The notes beneath the pieces are model-generated. The model saw nothing but the letters and a program-made list of their open reading frames with translations. It made no database searches and was not told where the DNA came from. The position numbers and the translations under genes were made by a program. 34,195 nucleotides of DNA from a virus (taxonomy: Duplodnaviria; Heunggongvirae; Uroviricota; Caudoviricetes): positions 1 through 34,195 of the IMG/VR virus record IMGVR_UViG_2579778804_000007, one strand, 5' to 3'. Shown here piece by piece: positions 19,361 through 30,719 of the stretch; position 1 is the stretch's first letter; the number at the start of each line of letters is the position of its first letter.

Positions 19361-19526
19361 CATGGCCTCTTTTACGTGAAAATCTGAAGAACTCCGGTGA
19401 GTGTCGGGATTTTTACAGCGGGGGGCTACTGGCTGAATTCGGCTGTCTTCGGATAACACGGGATAGCCGAACACAGCCGAAATTTTCTGCCTGAATGCGG
19501 GCCGGATGCGCCGCCATAATGGGCGC
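19361..19526. promoter_or_regulatory. Divergent late promoter region between scaffold (minus) and terminase (plus) operons; contains dyad TTCGGCTGT...ACAGCCGAA and TGT-N10-ACA elements
   Basis: Intergenic space between divergent late operons, as at the P2 O/P promoters that Ogr activates; dyads seen directly. Confidence 0.4.
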
Positions 19527-21329
19527 ATGGCTAAATATTCTGACGAAATCAAAGAGGCGGCGCGATCGCTTTACCTGAAGCGGTGGCACCCCCGCGATAT
19601 TGCGGCGGAACTCGGTATTCCGCCGCGCACGGTTTACCACTGGTGTGATGTGGGGCAGTGGGCTACCCTGCTGCCCGCTGAATCCGTTGAGGACGTGATC
19701 GCCCGGCGTATTGATGTTCTGACCGGACGGGAGGGCAAGACAGAGTGTGAACTCGCCGAACTGCGTGAACTTATCGCGCAGCACGTGAAGATCATCGCCC
19801 AGAAAAACAAACATGCTGAAAGGATGGCGGAAATTGCCGCCACGCGTCCGGCAGTGTACGACGACGGTGTGGCGGCGACCAGCGGCGGGGGTGAAGGGAA
19901 AAAGCGGCGCTACCGGAAAAACGACGTTTCCGGGCTGACTGCTGAAATGCTGGATGAATGGGCGCGTAAAAATCTTTATGCCTATCAGCTGCACTGCCGC
20001 GAGAACCGGCACCGTGAGCGCCGTTTCATCCTCAAGAGCCGCCAGATAGGCATGACCTGGTATTTTGCATGGGAGGCGTTCGAAGATGCGGTGGTGACCG
20101 GTGATAACCAGATTTTCTTTTCTGCGTCACGGGTACAGGCGGAAATCTTTCGTGAATATATTATTGATTTCGCCCAGCAGTTCGGGATCACGCTCACGGG
20201 TAAGCATATCCGTCTGAGCAATGGTGCAATGCTGCGCTTCCTGTCCACCAATGCCAGTACCGCCCAGGGATTTAACGGCCACCTTTACGGCGATGAGGTG
20301 TTCTGGATCCCAAAATTCACGCGACTGCATGAAGTGGCCTCGGCAATGGCGACCCACGACAAATACCGCACGACGTACTTTTCCACACCCAGCGCCAAAA
20401 CCCACCAGGCTTATCTGGTCTGGAACGGTGACGACTGGCGCGGGGATGACCCGACGCGTCGTGCTGTTGAGTTTCCGAAAGAAAGCGCGATGCGTGTGGG
20501 CTGTGAATGCCCTGACGGGATCTGGCGCTACATTATCCGGCTGGAAGAGGCGGTGGCGGGTGGCCTGTCTGCACGGGTTGATATTGAACGTATCAGGAAC
20601 CTCTACAACCCGACCACCTATGCGATGCTGTACGGCTGCGAGTTTGTTGACAGCAAGGATGCGGTATTTAAGTTCTCCGAACTGGTCAGGTGCGAGGTGG
20701 AGATGGAGACGTGGGGTGACTACGATCCCACGGCGGCACGTCCGTTCGGCAATCGTGAGGTGTGGGCGGGCTTTGACCCGTCAAGGTCCGGGGATAATTC
20801 CACGTTTGTGATTGTGGCTCCGCCTGTCCATGAAGGCGAGCGGTTCCGTGTGCTCGCCGTCTGGCAGTGGCAGGGATTTAACTTCACCTGGCAGGCCGAT
20901 CAGATCCGCGAACTGATGCAGCGCTTTAACATTACCTATATCGGCATAGATATCACCGGTATCGGGAAAGGGGTGTTTGATATCGTCAGTCGCTTTGCGC
21001 CACGTGAGGCTAACGCCATTCTTTACAGCGTGGAGAGCAAAAACCGCCTGGTGATGAAAATGATAGACGTGGTGGCCCATAAGCGTATCGAGTGGGCGAA
21101 AGACGCCATTGATGAGGCCAGCCGTGAACGCACGGAGATCCCCGCGTCGTTCATGTCCATACGCCGCACCACCACAAAAAGCGGTAACGCGCTGACGTTC
21201 GTGGCGGAACGGTCGGATGTTACGGGGCATGCGGATGTGTTTTTTGCCATTTCGCACGCCGTGATTAATGAGCCTGTAGATTATGACTATGAACGCCCGT
21301 CCACATGGGCCTTCGGGAAAGCCGCATGA
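19506..21329 (+). CDS. P: Terminase large (ATPase) subunit (P2 gpP-like)
   Basis: 607 aa; terminase-like ATPase region; divergent from O and followed by portal with ATGA overlap. Alternative start at 19527. Confidence 0.85.
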   Translation: MRRHNGRMAKYSDEIKEAARSLYLKRWHPRDIAAELGIPPRTVYHWCDVGQWATLLPAESVEDVIARRIDVLTGREGKTECELAELRELIAQHVKIIAQKNKHAERMAEIAATRPAVYDDGVAATSGGGEGKKRRYRKNDVSGLTAEMLDEWARKNLYAYQLHCRENRHRERRFILKSRQIGMTWYFAWEAFEDAVVTGDNQIFFSASRVQAEIFREYIIDFAQQFGITLTGKHIRLSNGAMLRFLSTNASTAQGFNGHLYGDEVFWIPKFTRLHEVASAMATHDKYRTTYFSTPSAKTHQAYLVWNGDDWRGDDPTRRAVEFPKESAMRVGCECPDGIWRYIIRLEEAVAGGLSARVDIERIRNLYNPTTYAMLYGCEFVDSKDAVFKFSELVRCEVEMETWGDYDPTAARPFGNREVWAGFDPSRSGDNSTFVIVAPPVHEGERFRVLAVWQWQGFNFTWQADQIRELMQRFNITYIGIDITGIGKGVFDIVSRFAPREANAILYSVESKNRLVMKMIDVVAHKRIEWAKDAIDEASRERTEIPASFMSIRRTTTKSGNALTFVAERSDVTGHADVFFAISHAVINEPVDYDYERPSTWAFGKAA

Positions 21330-22378
21330 GCAAGAAACGCAGAAACAAAACGTCACGCGTGACGAAAAAAGCATTCACGCCCGCACGTGGCAGCACAATC
21401 ACCTTTGGCCAGCCGGAACCGGTGCTGACCACCGGCACGGACTACCATAACATCTGGTATGACAACGAACACAACCACTGGCAGCTGCCGATTAACCGCC
21501 TGGCACTGGCGCAGCTCCCGAACCTTAACGCCCAGCATGGTGGGGTGCTGTATGCCCGCCGTAACATGGTGGCGGGGGGCTATACCGGTGGTGGTCTCAC
21601 AACGGACCAGATGGAACAGGCGGTATTTGACTACCTGTTGTTCGGCGATCTCGCCCTGCTCAAGGTGCGTAACGTATTCGGCGACGTCGTGGCACTTGAG
21701 CCGCTTCCGTCGCTGTATCTCCGGCGCCGCAAAACCGGTGAGTTCGTGGTGCTTCAGGAAGGCCCCGCGCTGGTCTATACGCCGGAAGATATTATCTTTC
21801 TGCGGATGTATGATCCGCGTCAGCAAATTTACGGGCTGCCGGATTATATCGGTGGCATTCACTCGGCGCTGCTGAACAGCGAGGCCAGCCTTTTTCGTCG
21901 CCGTTACTACAACAACGGGGCACATATGGGTTTTTTGCTGTATACGAACGACCCGGGGATCACCACGGAGATGGAGGATGAGATCCGCGAGAAGGTGGCG
22001 GAGTCTAAGGGGCTGGGAAATTTCCGCAATCTGTACATCAACATCCCCAAAGGTTCGCCGGATGGGGTGAAAATTATTCCGATTGGTGAGGTGAGCGCCA
22101 AGGATGAATTTTCAAACATCAAGGGGATCAGCGCCCAGGATGTGTTTACGGCACACCGTTTTCCTGCCGGTCTTGCGGGGATCATCCCCACGAACGGGGC
22201 CACCATCCCTAACCCGGAGACGACGCGTGAAACGTACCGCAAGGATGAGGTGATACCGCTTCAGCGTAAAATCATGAACGCCGTGAACAGCGATCCCGAT
22301 ATACCGGAACACCTTTATCTTTGTTTTGATGTGGATGCCGGGCATGTGGCGGAAGAAAAAGCGGTGCCGGTCGGGTAA
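21326..22378 (+). CDS. Q: Portal protein (P2 gpQ-like)
   Basis: 350 aa; start overlaps the terminase stop (ATGA); P2-like position downstream of P. Confidence 0.8.
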   Translation: MSKKRRNKTSRVTKKAFTPARGSTITFGQPEPVLTTGTDYHNIWYDNEHNHWQLPINRLALAQLPNLNAQHGGVLYARRNMVAGGYTGGGLTTDQMEQAVFDYLLFGDLALLKVRNVFGDVVALEPLPSLYLRRRKTGEFVVLQEGPALVYTPEDIIFLRMYDPRQQIYGLPDYIGGIHSALLNSEASLFRRRYYNNGAHMGFLLYTNDPGITTEMEDEIREKVAESKGLGNFRNLYINIPKGSPDGVKIIPIGEVSAKDEFSNIKGISAQDVFTAHRFPAGLAGIIPTNGATIPNPETTRETYRKDEVIPLQRKIMNAVNSDPDIPEHLYLCFDVDAGHVAEEKAVPVG

Positions 22379-22415
22379 AATGTCCTCCCCGGGATACGTG
22401 TTATCGGGAGGTAAG

Positions 22416-22679
22416 ATGCGGATTTTTAAAGCCCGGTGTCCGGACTGTGGCGCACCTGCTGTCATCCGGAAGACAGACTGGAAAACCCTTGAACTTGCGG
22501 ATCTTTACTGTGCATGCAGTGATGTCGAATGCGGGCACACCTTCGTCTGTACGATGACCTTTTCCCATACCCTCAGCCCCGGTGCCCGCTCCGGTCGCAA
22601 TATGGTGAAGTTCCTGGTGGATGCCATGCGCCCGGAAGATCGCCGGTATGCGCTTGAACTTCTGTCGCGGCGTTCCTGA
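22416..22679 (+). CDS. ogr: Ogr/Delta-family zinc-finger late-gene transcriptional activator
   Basis: CPDC-x18-YCACSDVEC cysteine pattern and downstream GHTFVCTMTF...SPG match the Ogr C-x2-C...C-x4-C finger; GGGAGG ribosome-binding site before ATG at 22416. Confidence 0.7.
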   Translation: MRIFKARCPDCGAPAVIRKTDWKTLELADLYCACSDVECGHTFVCTMTFSHTLSPGARSGRNMVKFLVDAMRPEDRRYALELLSRRS

Positions 22680-22706
22680 CGCGCTTCGCTTGTCTGCTGC
22701 TTCGCC

Positions 22707-22729
22707 GGGGCAAAAAGAATTTTTGCCCC
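22707..22729. terminator. Perfect palindromic hairpin GGGGCAAAAA-gaa-TTTTTGCCCC; bidirectional terminator between ogr and the minus-strand genes after gpA (alternatively part of cos)
   Basis: 10-bp perfect inverted repeat with 3-nt loop seen directly. Confidence 0.45.
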
Positions 22730-22773
22730 GACTCACCAGCTCCAGTGGTTCTTCATATCATTCGTTTTTTCTT

Positions 22774-22938
22774 TCAGCATACCATCCAGATAACCGCAAC
22801 GGTTGCCGCGTAAATTCTGGCGATAAAGCCCGGTGTGAAGTGTCGAAACGGGTTTTCCCACGTCAGGAATGCCATTAAAGCAATCCATGCAATGGTAAAA
22901 ATCAGCGCGCCCTTAACGGCGATAAACAGTTCGTTCAT
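22774..22938 (-). CDS. Small membrane protein, 54 aa, two predicted TM helices
   Basis: ORF MNELFIAVKGALIFTIAWIALMAFLTWENPFRHFTPGFIARIYAATVAVIWMVC with AAAGGAG 8 nt upstream; not in ORF track (under 60 aa); overlapping + strand track ORFs look spurious. Confidence 0.45.
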   Translation of the reverse strand: MNELFIAVKGALIFTIAWIALMAFLTWENPFRHFTPGFIARIYAATVAVIWMVC

Positions 22939-23011
22939 TGTGGTGTTCTCCTTTATGTGTCGGGCGAATAAACCGCGTTGCGGTGAAAAAATCAGGCGCG
23001 CCAGCGCAGCC

Positions 23012-23167
23012 TTACTGCTGACGGCGTTCCCGGAGTTCGGTCAGTGCCGCAAGTAAATTCTCCCACCACGTTTCTTCCACGACCGGGTTTTGTCGTGAAA
23101 GCAGCTGCTGTGCCGACTCAATCATTTTCTTCAGGTCTTTGTCGCTGATCCTCCTGATGTCGTTCAT
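23012..23167 (-). CDS. Small hypothetical protein, 51 aa
   Basis: Start chosen at MNDIRR with AAGGAG ribosome-binding site (track ORF 23012..23206). Confidence 0.4.
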   Translation of the reverse strand: MNDIRRISDKDLKKMIESAQQLLSRQNPVVEETWWENLLAALTELRERRQQ

Positions 23168-23214
23168 GGTGTGCTCCTTCAGTTTGCTGTTTCTGGTTAT
23201 GTTCATGGTCTTTG

Positions 23215-23619
23215 TTACCTGCGTGATTGCCTGTTGGCGGCCGAATGCACATAGCGGGCAATTGCCGCTTTTCGGTTAATCGATGCCAGTGTTCTGGTGA
23301 GTTCTGCGTTGTGTTTGTGTGCCTGCTCTTCGTGGTACTGCCGCATGATTTTTCCGGCAGGCGTGAGCGGCTCCGGCTCCCCGGGCGGACGGCGCGGACG
23401 AACGGCGACAAGCCAACTGCGGTTAGTGCTGTCCGGTCGTCCGTTGAGTATGTCGGTGATGATGGCCGTGGTGGTGCGATCGGGACTGACGACCGTGATT
23501 TCCAGCTCATCGCCAGGTTGTGGCCCCGTGGCAATGTTGTTCAGGGTCAGTAAGGGCGTGCGCTGGCGCATCAGTTCGTCAAAACGCTGTCGCTGCATGG
23601 CGCAATAAAAGCGGGTCAT
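23215..23619 (-). CDS. Hypothetical protein, 134 aa, immediately after gpA
   Basis: Start overlaps the gpA stop (coupled translation); no family recognised. Confidence 0.45.
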   Translation of the reverse strand: MTRFYCAMQRQRFDELMRQRTPLLTLNNIATGPQPGDELEITVVSPDRTTTAIITDILNGRPDSTNRSWLVAVRPRRPPGEPEPLTPAGKIMRQYHEEQAHKHNAELTRTLASINRKAAIARYVHSAANRQSRR

Positions 23620-26135
23620 TGTGGCGCCTCCGTATTCGGTGCGGGGGTGATATCAATGCGGCGGGTGCTGTCATTCCAGTACGCGGTGCGTCCGTCAGCC
23701 AGGCGCACGCGGGCACCGTGACGGACGGAAACGACGGCGCTTTCATGCAGCTGCACGCCCAGCGCATCAAGCTCACGGGTGATTTGTGCGGTGATGTGTG
23801 GCTCAGCGGTCAGAGCGATACTCACGCGAACGCCGCCAGCGGGCGCACTGATGCCGCCGTTTTTCACGGTTTCCGTGTCAGGTGGTGGGTTTTTCAGCTG
23901 CCTGGTGAGTTGTTTTCGCTCTGTGGGGGTCAGTGACCTTAACCATTCACCCAAATCACCTTCCGGCAGGGTAAGTCGCTGCTCCCTGCGTCCGTCCGGC
24001 TGCCTTTCTGGCGGGTCGTTTATGGTCAGATTCTGGTCAGGGGGACAGTTATTGCCACGAGTCCAAGGTGCGGCAAAGCCGCACTCAACGTCAAAACCCT
24101 CGTCCGTGCGGTCTTCGTTTTCCGGCTTACGTCTGACCAGTTTCCAGGTGTCCGGGTGGGTGCATATGGTGTAGCGCTCCCCGAGTGACGGGGCGCGGAC
24201 GCCGTAAATGCGTTGCGGGAATTCGCCGTAGTCGTTGGCCTCTTCGGCAGTTTCGTATGCGGTGCGGACCAGGTACGTGTTGCGGGGAATGAGCACACCA
24301 CCCTGGCGGGTGATATAGGTGGCAAAACATCCCACGTCGGCGGCGGCCAGTATGGCGTCAATGTCGTCATGGTCCAGACGCTGCGGGGCTGCCGGGTTAC
24401 GGGCCATCTGCCCGGCAAGGCGGCGGAGTTCGCGCCATACCTGGCGGGGCGGGATGCCGAAGAACTGGAACTGGTGGATGCGGTGAAGGCCTGCCCAGCC
24501 GATTGCGTTCTCCACGGTTTCGGCCATGGTTTTGCCTGATTCCTTATCGACGTAAGGTTTGCCGGTTTTCGGGTCATTCCCCATGAAGGCGCTGGCGTCC
24601 AGGTTCTTACCGATATAGGTCGCGATATAGCTTGTCGGTGTGCCTTTTGCCGGGTCGATTTTTTCGCATTTAAAACGCGGGGAGATATCATCACCCAGCT
24701 CTGCGCGGTCCTCCCTGATGGCGGCGTTGCGCATGATTTCAGTGATACGGGCTTCGTTTTCCGGGCTGGTGAATACCAGCATGTGCCAGTGCGGTGTACC
24801 GTCGTGGTGGGGCTCTACTGTGCGCACGCCGTACCAGCCCAGCCCGGCCTTGTTGATGGCCTTGCGGACGGCGGCGAAAAAGCGGTAAACCAGATAATCA
24901 CTGGCATCACGTACCGTTGCCCCGCAGTATTTCGGGTTCAGACTGCCGTCATCGTTCACGCTGTGAAAACGGGAAGGGGCTGTGACGGTGACGAAAAACG
25001 CCACGTCGCCGCGTGCTTCGGCGACCTGCTCCATTCCCCGGACGCAGGCCATCATCTCGTTACGGCGGTTACGCGGATTAGAGAGACCTGCCCAGTAGAT
25101 ATCCTCAAGGCTGAACCGTTCTCCCTCTTCGTTCTCGATGTCCCAGGCCTTCAGAAAATCGCGGGTGCGCTGGCGTTTTTCGCGCCAGTCCAGTAACGCT
25201 TCATGGCTGATATATACCGACGTCTTACGTGACACCAGGCCTGCGGCGCGTAACAGCTCTTCACGCCAGATGTCCCGGAGGTGTCTTAACTGACTGTTCC
25301 ACCATGTCGCACAGGAAAGGCGCATGACCGCACCCGGCACCTGTTCCGGGTCGGGGGCGGTGCGGCGGTCGGGCCTGATTTCCAGCGACGGCCAGCAGGG
25401 TGGCGTGATACCCAGTTTTAACGCCATGTGTGCCAGTGGCTGGTAGGTCAGTAACCAGGTGAACAGGTCATCGTCACCCCTGCCGGTCTTTTCGATGACC
25501 TCATCACATGCGCGCTCCAGTGCGGTGGAAAACGCGGTGGCGGTCAGGGTGGCAAGGCGCTGGATTTCGTCACGGCTCAGCTGCGGCAGCATAAGCAGTT
25601 CATCCAGCCGTTCGCGCGCGGCGGTGGCCTTAAAGGCCGGGGTGGCAAAGCGATCATTTACACGGGCGATACGTTTCAGGCGGGCACGCAGCCCGTGACG
25701 AACGAAGTTATCCGCCGCGTATGCGCTGTTGTTCTTAAGCCCTTCCCGGCGTGCGCTCTCCTGTTTGCGGCTCAGGCGTGCCAGGTCACGGATGAGCGGA
25801 CCGGCAAGAAACGGCGGCAGGGCGCGCAGCTCTGCCATGGCTTCAGATACCAGTGTGGGCGGATTCTCGTGTTTGTGCCGCGCCAGTTTTTCCAGTCTGA
25901 TCCGACGCTCTTCGTCGTGGTGAAGATGCGAATTAATTCGCTTGCCTTCGTCTGTGTTTGTCTGGAAGTCGACGGTCTCTTCATCCAGTCTTGCATCAAT
26001 GCGAATGTCTTCGTTGATGTAGCTCTGAATGGCCTGGCGCAATGCAGTTGGTTGCGCTCTGCCGAATGTTTCAGGATCGATAACCGGTAGCGGGGCGTTC
26101 CACGGGTACGCCAGTTGTGCATTATGGTCGCTCAT
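23616..26135 (-). CDS. A: Replication initiation endonuclease (P2 gpA family, rolling-circle HUH nuclease)
   Basis: About 840 aa; HUH motif in HHDGTPHWHMLVF; ATG at 26135 with GGGGAG ribosome-binding site (track starts at GTG 26144). Confidence 0.85.
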   Translation of the reverse strand: MSDHNAQLAYPWNAPLPVIDPETFGRAQPTALRQAIQSYINEDIRIDARLDEETVDFQTNTDEGKRINSHLHHDEERRIRLEKLARHKHENPPTLVSEAMAELRALPPFLAGPLIRDLARLSRKQESARREGLKNNSAYAADNFVRHGLRARLKRIARVNDRFATPAFKATAARERLDELLMLPQLSRDEIQRLATLTATAFSTALERACDEVIEKTGRGDDDLFTWLLTYQPLAHMALKLGITPPCWPSLEIRPDRRTAPDPEQVPGAVMRLSCATWWNSQLRHLRDIWREELLRAAGLVSRKTSVYISHEALLDWREKRQRTRDFLKAWDIENEEGERFSLEDIYWAGLSNPRNRRNEMMACVRGMEQVAEARGDVAFFVTVTAPSRFHSVNDDGSLNPKYCGATVRDASDYLVYRFFAAVRKAINKAGLGWYGVRTVEPHHDGTPHWHMLVFTSPENEARITEIMRNAAIREDRAELGDDISPRFKCEKIDPAKGTPTSYIATYIGKNLDASAFMGNDPKTGKPYVDKESGKTMAETVENAIGWAGLHRIHQFQFFGIPPRQVWRELRRLAGQMARNPAAPQRLDHDDIDAILAAADVGCFATYITRQGGVLIPRNTYLVRTAYETAEEANDYGEFPQRIYGVRAPSLGERYTICTHPDTWKLVRRKPENEDRTDEGFDVECGFAAPWTRGNNCPPDQNLTINDPPERQPDGRREQRLTLPEGDLGEWLRSLTPTERKQLTRQLKNPPPDTETVKNGGISAPAGGVRVSIALTAEPHITAQITRELDALGVQLHESAVVSVRHGARVRLADGRTAYWNDSTRRIDITPAPNTEAPQ

Positions 26136-26542
26136 GCGTCGCACTCCCCGGCAGTTGCCGCCTGAAACGCCGCGCGGTACAGCACGAGAAGGCGCTGGTA
26201 TTCACCGATAAAGTCTTCTGCGGTGTATATACCTTTCACGGCCACGCTGTGGTTTGTCATTTCCAGCACAAGCGTCATCTCTGACGACGACCAGCTGATG
26301 GCGGTGCTGTCGGTTCCGTTGATGTGAAATAAACCAAAACCATCACCTTTCACGTCCACGCGGTAACGGTCGTCAACGGTGAAGGAGAAATCCCCGTATG
26401 TGGTGACGCGTCTGGCGGCCTGTTTACAGGCGCGGCGGTAATAGTCGTGCCAGTCGTTGAGGCGGGAAGCCAGCCGGGGCTCCACTGCCCACATCCAGTT
26501 AAAAAAATCCTGAATATCTGAAAGTCCCTTAACGTTCTTCAT
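26132..26542 (-). CDS. Hypothetical early protein, 136 aa
   Basis: Overlaps gpA start by a few nt (operon coupling); no family recognised. Confidence 0.5.
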   Translation of the reverse strand: MKNVKGLSDIQDFFNWMWAVEPRLASRLNDWHDYYRRACKQAARRVTTYGDFSFTVDDRYRVDVKGDGFGLFHINGTDSTAISWSSSEMTLVLEMTNHSVAVKGIYTAEDFIGEYQRLLVLYRAAFQAATAGECDA

Positions 26543-26610
26543 GAGAACCTCCGGTAACAGACGTGCGGAAGCCTCCCGCGCACGGGTGCGGGATGGCTTC
26601 AGGATGTTGT

Positions 26611-26838
26611 TTAGTGGTGGTGTTGCTGGTTGATGAGGCTTTGCAGTTCTGCCATATCTTCGGCGAGATAGCTGAAGACAGCAGCGCAGTAACGGTTTGA
26701 TAGCGCGTGCGTGCGCTCATGCAGCATGTTGATATGCATGATTTGCGCGACGCGTGATGCGCGCCAGAGTCTGCGGTTGATTTCGGTGCGGATGTGAAGA
26801 CGCTCAGCGCGGGCGCGCTGTTGCTTGCGGTTTGCCAT
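26611..26838 (-). CDS. Small basic hypothetical protein, 75 aa
   Basis: Helical-looking basic protein; GAGG upstream of ATG. Confidence 0.45.
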   Translation of the reverse strand: MANRKQQRARAERLHIRTEINRRLWRASRVAQIMHINMLHERTHALSNRYCAAVFSYLAEDMAELQSLINQQHHH

Positions 26839-26877
26839 GACGTGGCCTCGTGTATAGTAAGTTTTGAAAACTCACCA

Positions 26878-27073
26878 TCCAGAGTTGAGAATCTCGGGGT
26901 GGCGAGACGTACGGGGTTCTCAACACCGGCTACACACGATCCCGGCCCGACCGAAGTCGGCCCCGTACGCCCCGCCATAATTCTGACGCGAAAAAGACGT
27001 GGCAATACAGTACGCACAAAAAAACCGCTGGCGCGGTTGTGCGCGTGTGTAGTCAGCGGGTTGAGAATCCCGG
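26878..27073. promoter_or_regulatory. Intergenic regulatory region: GTTGAGAATC direct repeats (about 26881 and 27060) with an inverted copy (about 26915), inverted repeat CGTACGGGG / CCCCGTACG, and a minus-strand terminator hairpin AACCGC-tgg-cGCGGTT followed by a T-run (about 27015-27045)
   Basis: Repeats and hairpin seen directly in a roughly 380-bp non-coding gap. Confidence 0.4.
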
Positions 27074-27132
27074 CACCCGTTTTATGAGGTGCAGCGGAAA
27101 TGTAACCTGACTCAACGAGCGCTGGCAAGCGG

Positions 27133-27163
27133 TTTTTGTGTTGCGTGCTGAAGTATGTATAAT
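27133..27163 (+). promoter_or_regulatory. Sigma70-like promoter (TTGTGT-N16-TATAAT) for the + strand membrane-protein gene
   Basis: Consensus -10 TATAAT at 27158-27163 with a -35-like hexamer at the right spacing, about 60 bp before the start codon. Confidence 0.45.
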
Positions 27164-27224
27164 CGCGGCGCAAAAATGGAATGCGCCGAAGGATAGCGGC
27201 GTTTATTAACAATGGAGGTTGTTT

Positions 27225-27692
27225 ATGCCTGTTGCTATGGAGCAAGCAGACAAGAAGATTTTTTTCCATCTGTGGTACAGCTACTGGCTGGAAGAGATGG
27301 TTTTCATACTCAGCAATAAAGCCGCTGCCGTGTTGCGCGCCGGGGCACTGATTGCTGCGGTATTCTCCTTTCTTCTCGTAGGTTTCCCCGTCCTGATGAG
27401 TCTTTGCGGGCTGGCGTTTTTTGTTTTTTCCTGGTTTTGCAGTAAGTTTGAGTGCGTCGCCGAATGGGCGTGCTGGCAGAAACAGAGCTACCTTCGTCTG
27501 ATTACGCAAAGGGATTTCATGAGCACTGAACGCCTCATTGAGCGCATTCTGTACCTGGAGGAAACGAACAGCGCATTCATGAAGGCGTTTGTCAGGCCCG
27601 CAAAAAACAAAGCGAGCGCATCTGTTGGTCTGTCTGCCAGCGAGCATTTGCGTTACTCCGAAAGGTTAATCTGCTGGTTGTGCGGCTTCTGA
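27225..27692 (+). CDS. Membrane protein of unknown function, 155 aa, transcribed opposite to the flanking phage genes (moron)
   Basis: GGAGG 6 nt before ATG 27225 (track ORF starts at TTG 27219); two or three hydrophobic helices and an amphipathic C-terminal region; own promoter. Confidence 0.55.
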   Translation: MPVAMEQADKKIFFHLWYSYWLEEMVFILSNKAAAVLRAGALIAAVFSFLLVGFPVLMSLCGLAFFVFSWFCSKFECVAEWACWQKQSYLRLITQRDFMSTERLIERILYLEETNSAFMKAFVRPAKNKASASVGLSASEHLRYSERLICWLCGF

Positions 27693-28016
27693 CCGGCGAA
27701 GCAGCTGCGCGACGGTTTCGCTGGCTGCCCGGTCAGACGGGTATGACACTGGCATATTCAGCTTAAGTGCCATTGCGTACTCAGCCCGTGCGCCAGCGGA
27801 CTCTTCCCATCCATCCAGTAAGTAAATGACGTCGACACACATGAGCATCGGAATACAAATGCTCATGTACTGCTGTTGGCTTAATCCGTCCGGCAACATG
27901 GCAGGGCTCAGCACAACGTGCGCGGCTGCTTCGAGCTCCGTCGCCGCTATGGAAAACGCCGTTCTGTTGTGGTCTTTGTATCCGGTCATGGGACCTGCGA
28001 TATAAATCACTGCCAT
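27666..28016 (-). CDS. DUF4406-family protein (nucleoside 2-deoxyribosyltransferase-like fold)
   Basis: MAVIYIAGPMTG N-terminus and DGWEESAGARAE motif match recalled DUF4406 consensus. Confidence 0.6.
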   Translation of the reverse strand: MAVIYIAGPMTGYKDHNRTAFSIAATELEAAAHVVLSPAMLPDGLSQQQYMSICIPMLMCVDVIYLLDGWEESAGARAEYAMALKLNMPVSYPSDRAASETVAQLLRRSEAAQPAD

Positions 28017-28225
28017 GCTTTACCTCCCGTATTGCGTGTTGCTGTCAGCACGCGTACTTCTTCCACGTTCGTGGCGCAGAAGTGCGAACCGTTGATAAGG
28101 CGGATGTGATGCATCTCAGAATTGCGTGAGTCCTGGCGTGTCATGCCCTGGTCAATCAGGCTTTCGTCGACTTCATACTGACGGTCGTTGGCTGTGAATC
28201 TGATAACGGTTGACTCCTTGATCAT
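28007..28225 (-). CDS. Hypothetical small protein, 72 aa
   Basis: ORF in operon register, overlapping neighbours by a few nt. Confidence 0.4.
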   Translation of the reverse strand: MIKESTVIRFTANDRQYEVDESLIDQGMTRQDSRNSEMHHIRLINGSHFCATNVEEVRVLTATRNTGGKAWQ

Positions 28226-28458
28226 TGCTTGACTCCTTGCCCGGCAGATTTCTCGTTGAGCTGCTTTTTAAGGGCGGCGATTTCACTTTCCTGATCCTGA
28301 ATTACCTGGATTGCTTCCATGGTGATCCTCAGTGAAATCGCTGAAGAGATAACGACCTTTGGTCTTCCAGCGGCTGCGGCAGCTCTTGCTGTTTCCTTGT
28401 GTGCATGGGCGATGAGACGCAATTCCCGCAAAAGCCCTTTGTTGTTTTCGCTATTCAT
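28222..28458 (-). CDS. Hypothetical small protein, 78 aa
   Basis: ORF in operon register; coiled-coil-like C-terminus. Confidence 0.4.
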   Translation of the reverse strand: MNSENNKGLLRELRLIAHAHKETARAAAAAGRPKVVISSAISLRITMEAIQVIQDQESEIAALKKQLNEKSAGQGVKQ

Positions 28459-28493
28459 TTCCTGACTCCGGCGTTACTGATTCATCTGTTTAT

Positions 28494-29474
28494 TCACGTA
28501 TTGGCTGTGGCAAACATTGCGCTGTAAGTTGCATCTCCCGTTACCGGTCCGCAGTCCGGGCAGTAGCCACCGCCATGGCGACCGCAGGCGTTGCACTGTC
28601 TCAGGGTGGCGATAACCTCCGGTGCTGATTCCCGGGTTCTTGCGCCAACGCTTCGTGGTGCCTGTATGCAGTTCATCCGGTAACCCCGATAAATGCGTCG
28701 TGTTTCCGGTGTGTCGGAATTGGAGATGGTGATGCTGGTCATGCCGCCCGTTTCCTGTGAAAGGCGGTCAAGCGCTGCCCTCAGACGAACGTGCTCGCCT
28801 TCATCGAATGGTTTTCCGTAGGCGGTAAAATTGTCCCGGCCACTGAATTGCAGGTAAGGGGGATCGCAGTACACGCAAAGCGTGTTACCCATGCTGAACA
28901 GGTGGCTGGCACAGCTCAGCGTTTTTCGAAAATCGCCATGAACAAGCAGTGTTCGGGTGCTGTTTGCCTTGTCTGCAAATGCGCGGATTTCCCGTTCAGG
29001 GAAGTAGGGGGTCCGGTAGCCGCCGAAAGAAACGTTAAAGTCACCTTTTCCGTTCACCCGGTACAGGCCATTAAAGCAGTGCCGGTTGAGATACAAAAAC
29101 ATGGCGGCCAGTCGCAGTTCACGGCGGTCTCTCATTCCCGTTCTGCTACTCAGGAAGGCATGATTCTCTGCGTTAAAGGTTTCGCGAATGATGAGATAGT
29201 CACCCCTGTTGTTGTGGTTCAGGAACAGGGTTTTCGCCTCGTCGATCAGGCTGTCGGTGTTGTCCCTGGCTTGCCGGTAGAAATTAATCAGCGCACCATT
29301 GGAATCACCCAGGATGTAACGCTTGTAACTGGTGTTCATGAATACCGATGCGCCACCCACAAACGGCTCAACCAGGCAGTCTGCTTCTGGCAGATGCGCC
29401 TTCAGTGTGTTCATGATGCGACTTTTTCCGCCCACCCATTTCAGCGGCGTACCGGATAACAGTTCTTTGCTCAT
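28494..29474 (-). CDS. dam: DNA adenine methyltransferase (Dam-like) with C-terminal Cys4 zinc-ribbon extension
   Basis: DPPY catalytic motif and N-terminal SAM-binding region; C-terminal CNAC-x9-CPDC. Confidence 0.8.
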   Translation of the reverse strand: MSKELLSGTPLKWVGGKSRIMNTLKAHLPEADCLVEPFVGGASVFMNTSYKRYILGDSNGALINFYRQARDNTDSLIDEAKTLFLNHNNRGDYLIIRETFNAENHAFLSSRTGMRDRRELRLAAMFLYLNRHCFNGLYRVNGKGDFNVSFGGYRTPYFPEREIRAFADKANSTRTLLVHGDFRKTLSCASHLFSMGNTLCVYCDPPYLQFSGRDNFTAYGKPFDEGEHVRLRAALDRLSQETGGMTSITISNSDTPETRRIYRGYRMNCIQAPRSVGARTRESAPEVIATLRQCNACGRHGGGYCPDCGPVTGDATYSAMFATANT

Positions 29475-29677
29475 AACGCGGCCTCTTTGTTATAGGTTTC
29501 GTGCGTTAATAAATCCCATGACACCCCGTTGTTTTTGCTCAGCAGTCGCCAGCGAAAACCGATTCTTATTACCAGGTAGTCGTGGGGTTTTATGCGTGAA
29601 AAATTCCGCACGCCGTCGCGGAATAAACGCAGTGATGCGCGGGCTTTTCTTTCCACGTTCAGGGGGGGCAGCAACAC
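29471..29677 (-). CDS. Hypothetical small protein, 68 aa (GTG start), coupled to dam
   Basis: Stop overlaps dam ATG (ATGA); an alternative overlapping 63-aa ORF exists (29490..29681). Confidence 0.3.
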   Translation of the reverse strand: MLLPPLNVERKARASLRLFRDGVRNFSRIKPHDYLVIRIGFRWRLLSKNNGVSWDLLTHETYNKEAAL

Positions 29678-29706
29678 ACATTCAGGATGGCGACCATAGC
29701 TTCACC

Positions 29707-30297
29707 TCATATGCTCAGGAATGGTGTTGTGAAGCGTTGCCAGATTTCTGACACGACCTTTGCCTGGTAAATGGCATCGCCCAGTGCAGTGTGAGCAATG
29801 GTCTCTTTGCCTGATCGGCCTGGCATTCTCCAGCCGGAGGACTTAGCCATGTCGATAAGCGAACGCATACAGCGCTCGTTCCAGTAGCGCCACGGAACGC
29901 TTTTTTCTCCGGCCGTGCGCTTTATGGCGGATCTCAGGATCGGGAAATCAAAGGATGCGCCCTTGCACCATACGATCAGTTGATTGCCTAGGGTTTCGTC
30001 TTGCATGTTGCGCGAAATGAACGCCAGAAATTCGGTTACTGCCGCAAGTTCTGTTCCCTCTGCGTTGAGCAGGCAGGCTCTGGCCTTCGCGGATTCCCCG
30101 GCCCACCATACGGCGGTTGATGCATTGACGGTTCCGCCGTTGCGCTCTGAATCCACCGGGTCGATGAGTTTCTCAAACTGCTTGCCCAGCTTTCCGGTGA
30201 ACGGGTCGAAAAACACCGCGCCGATCGCGAATATGACTGCATCCGGTCCGGTACCCAGTGTTTCGGTGTCGATCATGAGATGGTTCACTGTGTGCAC
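29707..30297 (-). CDS. DEDD-type 3'-5' exonuclease (DnaQ-like fold)
   Basis: LMIDTETLG Exo I motif near N-terminus and later H/D motifs; start codon uncertain (GTG candidates at 30297 and 30288). Confidence 0.6.
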   Translation of the reverse strand: MHTVNHLMIDTETLGTGPDAVIFAIGAVFFDPFTGKLGKQFEKLIDPVDSERNGGTVNASTAVWWAGESAKARACLLNAEGTELAAVTEFLAFISRNMQDETLGNQLIVWCKGASFDFPILRSAIKRTAGEKSVPWRYWNERCMRSLIDMAKSSGWRMPGRSGKETIAHTALGDAIYQAKVVSEIWQRFTTPFLSI

Positions 30298-30518
30298 TCC
30301 TTCTGTTCGGCGTTGTTCGTGAGCGTTGCAATCAGTCGTTCAATGGATGAACAGGTTTCCTCCGGGGAGGTGTGCTTCTCTCTCGCTGTGTCAACCAGGT
30401 CACGCAGTAATTCGCAGATATGCGCACGTTCGGCTTTTCTTGCGGTCATGCTGATGTGTGCATGTGGCTGTTCCGGTCTGGCGGTTATTTCTCTGCTGGG
30501 TGATTCGGCAGTTCTCAT
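30285..30518 (-). CDS. Hypothetical small protein, 77 aa
   Basis: AGGAG 7 nt upstream of ATG 30518 (track ORF extends to 30542); stop overlaps exonuclease start. Confidence 0.4.
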   Translation of the reverse strand: MRTAESPSREITARPEQPHAHISMTARKAERAHICELLRDLVDTAREKHTSPEETCSSIERLIATLTNNAEQKECTQ

Positions 30519-30623
30519 TTGTTGACTCCTGAAAAAAGACAAAGGGAAGCCGAAGGCATGAGTGCCTTAATTAATTGCTTGTGTGTTTTCTGGTGTTATT
30601 CCGCTCCTGCTTTCGGCTTCAGA

Positions 30624-30719
30624 TTATCCCCAGATCTTCAGGGCTAACCAGATAAGCGCGCACACCTGAAATATCAGCCATACAGTGGCGATGGTGAGTA
30701 TTGCTTTTACATTCTTCAT
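30624..30719 (-). CDS. Short hydrophobic peptide, 31 aa
   Basis: MKNVKAILTIATVWLIFQVCALIWLALKIWG; single TM helix; no clear ribosome-binding site, 12 nt after the upstream peptide stop; not in ORF track. Confidence 0.35.
   Translation of the reverse strand: MKNVKAILTIATVWLIFQVCALIWLALKIWG

Follow-up and report, generated by a model that had tools for sequence, protein, structure and literature searches.

Three small genes after gpA in a P2-like Escherichia coli prophage may form a composite tail of the early operon

The 34,195-nucleotide stretch of DNA analysed here (the window; positions 1 to 34,195 of the IMG/VR virus record IMGVR_UViG_2579778804_000007) is a P2-like (Peduoviridae) E. coli prophage, and our subject is the group of three small genes that follows its replication endonuclease gene, gpA. 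With E. coli O22:H8 strain 154 the window shares 100% identity over positions 22300-23700 and 99.7% over 21900-24600; RefSeq annotates all three small open reading frames (ORFs) as coding sequences (CDSs) in the genome that is identical over the shorter range. The original prediction, made from the letters alone, had read at this place genes for proteins of 134 and 51 amino acids (aa) and for a 54-aa protein with two transmembrane (TM) segments, and all three are present there, on the minus strand. It had also likened the position to the tin/old hotspot of phage P2, and in this respect it was right: the interval is the one between gpA and gpQ (PMC9122126, PMC13586616). The gene order is gpA, 134-aa gene, 51/64-aa gene, 54-aa gene, hairpin, ogr and portal, with the following features:

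Ends at 22378, plus strand: portal gene.
22416-22679, plus strand: ogr/Delta-type zinc-finger late activator (Pfam Ogr_Delta, E 5e-15; RefSeq CDS), convergent with the three small genes.
22674-22746: conserved 73-bp element containing the hairpin (22706-22730); Q-side edge of the variable slot, between the convergent units.
22743-23021: variable slot, bounded by recombination breakpoints among relatives.
22774-22938, minus strand: gene for the 54-aa two-TM membrane peptide (hydropathy, ribosome-binding site).
22939-23011, minus strand: 73-bp spacer, with a weak stem-loop and UGAUUUUUU just after the stop of the 51/64-aa gene, then the AAGGAG of the 54-aa gene.
23012-23167 (51-aa form) or 23012-23206 (64-aa form), minus strand: helix-loop-helix protein gene (phrog_14672, E 8e-31).
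23215-23619, minus strand: 134-aa gene, overlapping the gpA stop by 4 nt.
23616-26144 (23616-26135 from the RefSeq start), minus strand: gpA replication endonuclease (Pfam Phage_GPA, E 7e-108; phrog_91).

The interval is composite, and is made up of an Orf91-type backbone gene, the gene of a semi-conserved helical protein and a single tiny membrane-peptide cargo gene. We located the edges of the exchanged segment by blastn of the interval against relatives from complete E. coli genomes, and compared content across 30 loci, namely the window, eight relatives from complete E. coli genomes and 21 IMG/VR contigs; because the E. coli genome loci were picked for diversity, counts of loci are not frequencies. 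The relatives all share sequence up to about 22742, just past the hairpin, and share it again from 23022. The breakpoints fall at 22743/22750 and 23021/23022 and delimit a swapped segment of about 280 bp, and the 54-aa gene is therefore the only gene inside it. Strain Bongo has a MarR-like gene in place of 22744-23021, and G6/7 and STEC17-183 have 1.8-2.4 kb instead, encoding MarR, SSB, a multi-TM protein and a 167-aa protein. Content at this position had been expected to vary across related P2-like prophages, and it does, with at least 14 arrangements across the 30 loci; no gene of the three is found throughout the P2-like phages. The suggestion that the genes form one accessory set survives only for the 54-aa gene, which lies in the swapped segment and occurs at 5 of the 30 loci; the 134-aa gene is found at all 30 and the 51/64-aa gene, intermediate between them, at 15. 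In the 5426 complete E. coli genomes, the region of the 134-aa and 51-aa genes is present in 68, 37 of which have both genes, as against seven for the 54-aa segment.

None of the three proteins had been thought to resemble a known defence protein, and database searches agree with this view. Pfam, PADLOC and NCBI-style annotation gave no match for any of them, PADLOC models returning none at E values up to 1, and the PHROGs matches were to unknown-function families only; for the 54-aa protein, Pfam, PHROG and PADLOC gave no family. A tblastn search with each protein against 50,697 phage records gave no match, and species-representative genomes contained no relative of the 54-aa or 134-aa protein. 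The closest isolated phages are P88-like, with a gpA 53% identical to that of the window; the clade is known only as prophages.

In our reading the 134-aa gene belongs to the backbone and is not cargo. The 4 nt ATGA (23616-23619) hold both its ATG and the gpA stop, GGAGG precedes this start, and a 4-nt overlap of gpA with a gene of this type is annotated in nine genomes. The homologue present at every locus is 133-143 aa long and lies directly after gpA in 29/29 loci that include upstream sequence, over a range of gpA identities of 53-100% and portal identities of 30-100%. Its GC content matches that of gpA (0.593 and 0.598, respectively), while the 64-aa and 54-aa genes stand at 0.503 and 0.485, and its ratio of nonsynonymous to synonymous substitution rates (dN/dS) against diverged homologues is 0.21-0.44. 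The family comprises 36 clusters at 90% identity, all named ones being from E. coli, and about three clusters at 50% identity in a HMMER profile search of 1.8 billion proteins; two further weak matches to the profile were repeat proteins, which we rejected as members. The family thus sampled is confined to E. coli prophages. We also observed a third, nested breakpoint at the 3' end of the gene (23215-23286): about 31 of the 68 E. coli genomes match only its first 110 or so codons and continue into a different tail, giving a protein of 143 aa. At loci with the 143-aa form, the next genes encode an 82-aa protein or Ead/Ea22-like proteins and replace the 51-aa gene.

The best AlphaFold2 (AF2) model of the 134-aa protein, computed from a 19-sequence alignment, has a predicted local distance difference test score (pLDDT) of 84 and consists of a strand, a helix and four strands in residues 1-75, followed by a long basic C-terminal helix (residues 87-133). 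Searched by Foldseek against the BFVD viral models, it finds DUF3850/ASCH phage proteins at probability 1.0, with E values of 1e-4 to 1e-2, and we predict that the N-terminal domain (residues 1-75) is a PUA-like beta-barrel of ASCH/DUF3850 type. An hhalign comparison of this domain with a 9-sequence DUF3850 alignment is co-linear (F13, G36-D37-x-L39, I54-T55-D56), with a pairwise P of 0.015; full-length and global hhalign of the 134-aa protein against P2 Orf91/DUF3850 gave nothing. A test for the 134-aa domain as a fusion inside the longer gpA of P88 was negative.

The obvious comparison is with Orf91 of P2, whose sequence (Table S2A of PMC9122126) matches Pfam DUF3850 (E 1e-16) and ASCH (E 2e-10). 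In the P2 record A occupies 28034-30319 and Orf91 30316-30645, so that the two genes share a 4-nt start/stop overlap with Orf91 immediately 3' of gpA, as in the window, and both downstream proteins are small and have an ASCH/DUF3850-type barrel, predicted in the case of the window. The two differ in that they have no significant sequence similarity (hhalign probability 0.1-3%), and in that the window protein has an extra basic C-terminal helix of 47 residues and lacks the motif GxKxxExR. Because sequence comparison stays weak, we describe the 134-aa protein as the predicted positional and fold equivalent of Orf91, and not as a demonstrated member of its family. DUF3850 genes were seen beside replication genes elsewhere as well: after A in P2 itself, where the gene also matches ASCH (locus L037, 3817-4146), before A and overlapping it in the Eganvirus Yersinia phage vB_YpM_MHG38 (locus L038, 404-685), and between helicase and primase in Aeromonas phage pIS4-A. 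DUF3850 seems to be tied to replication modules. Orf91 is mentioned in passing as essential in a preprint.

The second gene can be read from two starts. The 51-aa form begins at the ATG at 23167, with AAGGAG 6 nt upstream, and the 64-aa form annotated by RefSeq begins at the ATG at 23206, with a weak ribosome-binding site; since some homologues have no internal methionine, either start is possible. AF2 models the 51-aa protein as a helix-loop-helix (helices 9-24 and 32-50, pLDDT 82), a helical hairpin that has no significant structural match in the PDB. The core MIESAQQLLSRxNPVVEETWWENLLAALTELRERR is almost invariant in 74 clusters, all named ones from E. coli, and dN/dS for the 64-aa gene is 0.23-0.48. 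The 15 loci with this gene are exactly those with the 133-138-aa form of the 134-aa gene, and the 51/64-aa gene is a semi-conserved partner of that form. Of the annotated relatives, four have a MarR-like winged-helix gene, and in these the 51/64-aa gene overlaps it by 4 nt; this partner is absent in the window.

The 54-aa protein is strongly hydrophobic (grand average of hydropathy 1.18), with hydrophobic segments at about residues 3-27 and 37-54, and its gene is preceded by AAGGAG. It is also very rare: there are only three clusters among 5.8 billion proteins, and apart from the seven complete E. coli genomes the segment was found in two IMG/VR contigs. The sole diverged homologue, in strain E7-1N7, is 59% identical and of the same length, and keeps both hydrophobic segments, the loop motif W-E/D-N-P-x-x-H-F-T-x-G-F-I-x-R-I and the N-terminal motif. 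The E7-1N7 gene overlaps a 143-aa gene by 4 nt and has no 51-aa gene beside it, so the 54-aa gene is not obligately paired with the 51-aa gene. Constraint on the 54-aa gene is the weaker, as its dN/dS is 0.28 among close copies and rises to 0.71 when the distant homologue is compared. With their ribosome-binding sites, dN/dS values and RefSeq annotation, all three ORFs nevertheless look like genuine genes. A lead is offered by small membrane proteins of phages, T4 Imm and the type I toxins among them, which are likewise very small, hydrophobic, two-segment and phage-encoded. The 54-aa peptide has, however, no sequence or profile similarity to any described family.

All three small genes are co-directional with the early operon, and two of them are joined to their neighbours by overlap or short gaps. 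A crude consensus scan found no sigma-70-like site on either strand of 22300-23800, and the interval contains no LexA box, which we sought as at the 186 tum promoter. From the shared direction, the overlaps and short gaps, and the outcome of the two scans, we infer that the genes are expressed only when the early promoter fires, and the 4-nt overlap of the TM gene with the gene upstream of it in E7-1N7 was counted for the same view. The spacer at 22939-23011 gave no promoter- or terminator-like call, and its stem-loop and U-run after the 51/64-aa gene were rejected as a structured element, the fold being no better than that of shuffled sequences (z = +0.57).

The likeness to tin/old is one of place and of exchanged content. 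The P2 locus, like the window interval, is cos-proximal, with gpA on one side and the portal end of the genome on the other, and the gpA-gpQ hotspot resembles the window slot in that its content is exchanged between close relatives, with toxin-antitoxin (TA)- and defence-type genes in some of them. An organisation like that of tin/old was not supported: the strand differs, as does the promoter arrangement so far as the crude scan shows it, and the 134-aa gene corresponds to Orf91 rather than to tin or old. In the P2 record tin and old run on the other strand from A, and mapping places the start of the old-tin mRNA near cos, so that the two genes are able to act in the lysogen. Tin and Old are large proteins expressed from the opposite strand and from their own promoter near cos, whereas the window genes are tiny, run in the direction of the early operon and have no detected promoter or known defence domain, and the slot itself holds the single 54-aa gene.

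From these observations, we consider with moderate confidence that the interval as a whole is best explained as the composite 3' tail of the early (replication) operon, and not as a cassette of tin/old type. On induction or infection the early promoter would drive all three genes, which would be silent in the lysogen, with transcription ending at, or converging on, the hairpin. The 134-aa protein would be made in step with gpA, and may bind nucleic acid (RNA or single-stranded DNA) with the barrel and the basic helix, serving replication or early expression as an accessory of Orf91 type. Early in lytic growth the 54-aa peptide would insert in the inner membrane, where it could be a small exclusion or host-membrane-modifying factor.

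Several points weigh against this reading, or against parts of it. As to the fold, the other four of the five AF2 models of the 134-aa protein score only about 56 pLDDT and the alignment behind them is shallow (effective number of sequences about 2); Pfam PF12961 and PF04266 are matched neither by the protein nor by any of the 19 family members at E values up to 10; a profile search of the PDB with the protein gave no match; the domain-only hhalign of its N-terminal domain against DUF3850 reaches a probability of only 3%, which is non-significant; and where DUF3850 has the motif GxKxxExR, after helix 1, the aligned segment reads QRTPLLTL. Orf91 for its part is listed as a protein of unknown function, and the analogy therefore yields a class and not a mechanism. 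As to the 54-aa gene, its dN/dS against the distant homologue is 0.71, the crude consensus scan could miss a weak constitutive promoter in the 73-bp spacer before it, and the RmrA-matching and PIN pair that relatives carry in the slot makes a defence role for it conceivable.

That pair belongs to a wider set of slot contents. Relatives have at this place MarR, SSB, Ead/Ea22-like proteins, a ClpX-zinc-finger protein, a TumE-family pair, a RosmerTA-like pair and IS3 insertions (the last, of the IS3 family, at loci L025 and L028). In relatives with the 143-aa form (L026, 6046-7699; also L025 and L027), a protein with a helix-turn-helix (HTH) and an M78 peptidase domain matches PADLOC RmrA at E 3e-35 and is followed by a PIN protein; by its sequence we take this to be a RosmerTA-like defence pair. 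Rousset et al. (2022; PMC9122126) describe gpA-gpQ as a hotspot of P2-like phages, with 1,650 arrangements in E. coli, and their table lists relatives of the 134-aa protein and of a 69-aa protein as 'hypothetical' in SSB-containing arrangements. According to PMC13586616, 19% of P2-like elements carry only unknown genes at the hotspot, and many such genes are predicted or shown to be antiviral. The 'hp + hp + hp' anti-P1 system of Rousset et al. was considered and set aside as unrelated to the three genes, as its proteins are large and different. The slot is a defence hotspot in this clade, in the sense used in the literature, and its content, on our analysis, raises the prior that the 54-aa gene is some conflict gene, without showing it.

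Such content also gives its force to the strongest of the alternatives, in which the 54-aa peptide is a stand-alone prophage gene for defence or superinfection exclusion, with a weak promoter in the spacer driving it in the lysogen and the peptide acting at the inner membrane to block DNA entry or to cause abortive depolarisation. The gene is alone in the swap slot and beside the conserved hairpin, has a strong ribosome-binding site and a GC content below that of the backbone, and is separated from its upstream neighbour by a spacer with a hairpin and U-run; the RosmerTA-like pair in the slot of relatives and the antiviral record of unknown hotspot genes (PMC13586616) point the same way. Even so, we think this account unlikely, for no promoter-like site was found, the E7-1N7 homologue overlaps the upstream early gene by 4 nt and so has no room for a promoter of its own, the gene is confined to one clade and was not seen on other mobile elements, and no defence family matches it.

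It is improbable, and more so than a stand-alone defence role, that the 54-aa ORF has no function, whether as what is left of a decaying gene or as a spurious ORF. Its dN/dS of 0.71 against the distant homologue, its extreme rarity and its lack of a family match are what such an ORF would present, but length, hydrophobic segments and the loop and N-terminal motifs are all kept at 59% identity, the AAGGAG is strong, the 4-nt overlap with an upstream gene recurs in a second context, and close copies have a dN/dS of 0.28.

We find it hard to credit that the three genes together are one non-essential accessory (anti-phage) set equivalent to tin/old. The position in the gpA-gpQ hotspot, the unknown function and narrow distribution of all three, and the defence- and TA-type genes in the interval of relatives would suit such a set; yet the genes differ in conservation (30, 15 and 5 of 30 loci) and in GC content, breakpoints separate them, the 134-aa gene is coupled to gpA as Orf91 is in P2, PADLOC has no match, and orientation and promoter arrangement are unlike those of tin/old. 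Least credible of all is a TA or abortive-infection pair formed by the soluble 51/64-aa protein and the 54-aa membrane peptide, which are encoded by adjacent small genes, one acidic and helical and the other hydrophobic, both below backbone GC, because, of the 15 loci with the 51-aa gene, 11 lack the 54-aa gene, strain E7-1N7 has the TM homologue but no 51-aa gene, and the partner to which the 51-aa gene is coupled in most relatives is a MarR-like gene.

A survey of the hotspot that scores all genes from gpA to gpQ as its content lumps true cargo together with genes that are coupled to gpA and conserved in the lineage. The edges of the slot, at the conserved hairpin element and the end of the 51/64-aa gene, are sharp and reusable, and give a precise place in which to seek small cargo genes; these exact edges and the link between an ASCH-type fold and gpA are the most useful outputs of the analysis. 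That proteins of ASCH fold are linked to gpA function is a testable idea, and three cases, P2 Orf91, the Eganvirus DUF3850 gene adjoining A and the 134-aa family, led us to a broader one. We put it forward tentatively, as a conjecture that we ourselves doubt: that an ASCH/DUF3850-fold protein translated in step with the rolling-circle initiator gpA might be a recurrent, so far unstudied partner of gpA-type replication across Peduoviridae, perhaps as a nucleic-acid-binding or modified-base-reading cofactor, and, separately, that the 54-aa peptide might be a new single-gene exclusion determinant. If the peptide had an exclusion phenotype, it would be among the smallest such determinants at the hotspot; if it had none, the locus would be an ordinary operon tail.

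The hairpin at the edge of the slot, CGGGGCAAAAA-GAA-TTTTTGCCCCG (22706-22730), has a perfect 11-bp stem and a 3-nt loop; what had been called a perfect palindromic hairpin is perfect in its stem, but the palindrome does not continue across the loop. For the 96 nt of its context the folding energy is -31.8 kcal/mol (z = -3.6), a value that 0 of 200 shuffled sequences matched. The surrounding 73-bp element occurs at 91-94% identity in 1111 of the 5426 complete E. coli genomes; the matches we sampled adjoin the 3' end of portal or ogr, or unannotated sequence. It is kept even where portal identity is about 30%, and is far more conserved than its flanks. In P88-like phages (Xuanwuvirus), where the stem has a compensatory A-T to T-A swap, it comes directly after the portal stop and borders the last early-operon genes; in the window ogr is inserted between portal and the element, which thus follows ogr. 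P88 differs further in having ParM-type partition genes, and no 134-aa homologue, after its longer gpA of 940 aa.

Neither strand has a T-run after the hairpin, the T-run lying inside the stem, and a terminator scan made no call; because there is no U-tract after the stem and the scan was silent, the hairpin is not a canonical terminator. The 19-nt cos sequence of P2, GGCGAGGCGGGGAAAGCAC, has no match with three or fewer mismatches. The best local match, 13/19 at 22719-22737 on the minus strand, is equalled at 12 other sites in the window and is at chance level, and a P2-type cos was accordingly rejected, as was an Rfam match to the gyrA RNA motif (22685-22738, minus strand; 25.2 bits against a gathering threshold of 45, E 0.0015), which we took as chance. 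The element could serve in bidirectional termination, as part of an unrecognised cos, or as a homology anchor for cassette exchange.

In P2, ogr lies between D and int. In the window it is directly 3' of portal and converges with the early operon; where relatives have another portal type, ogr is missing from the corresponding place. On the far side of gpA, the 5' part of the early operon (26529-30297) contains four genes and is a second variable region, between int and gpA. The remaining features of the window, with those four genes, are:

19506-21329, plus strand: terminase large subunit.
26529-27647: Ash-like 372-aa protein.
27666-28016: DUF4406 protein.
28494-29474: Dam-type D12 N6-adenine methyltransferase.
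29707-30297: Rv2179c-like 3'-5' exonuclease.

At the equivalent of 26529-30297, strain 154 has other small ORFs and a MarR gene, despite its near-identity to the window around the small-gene interval.

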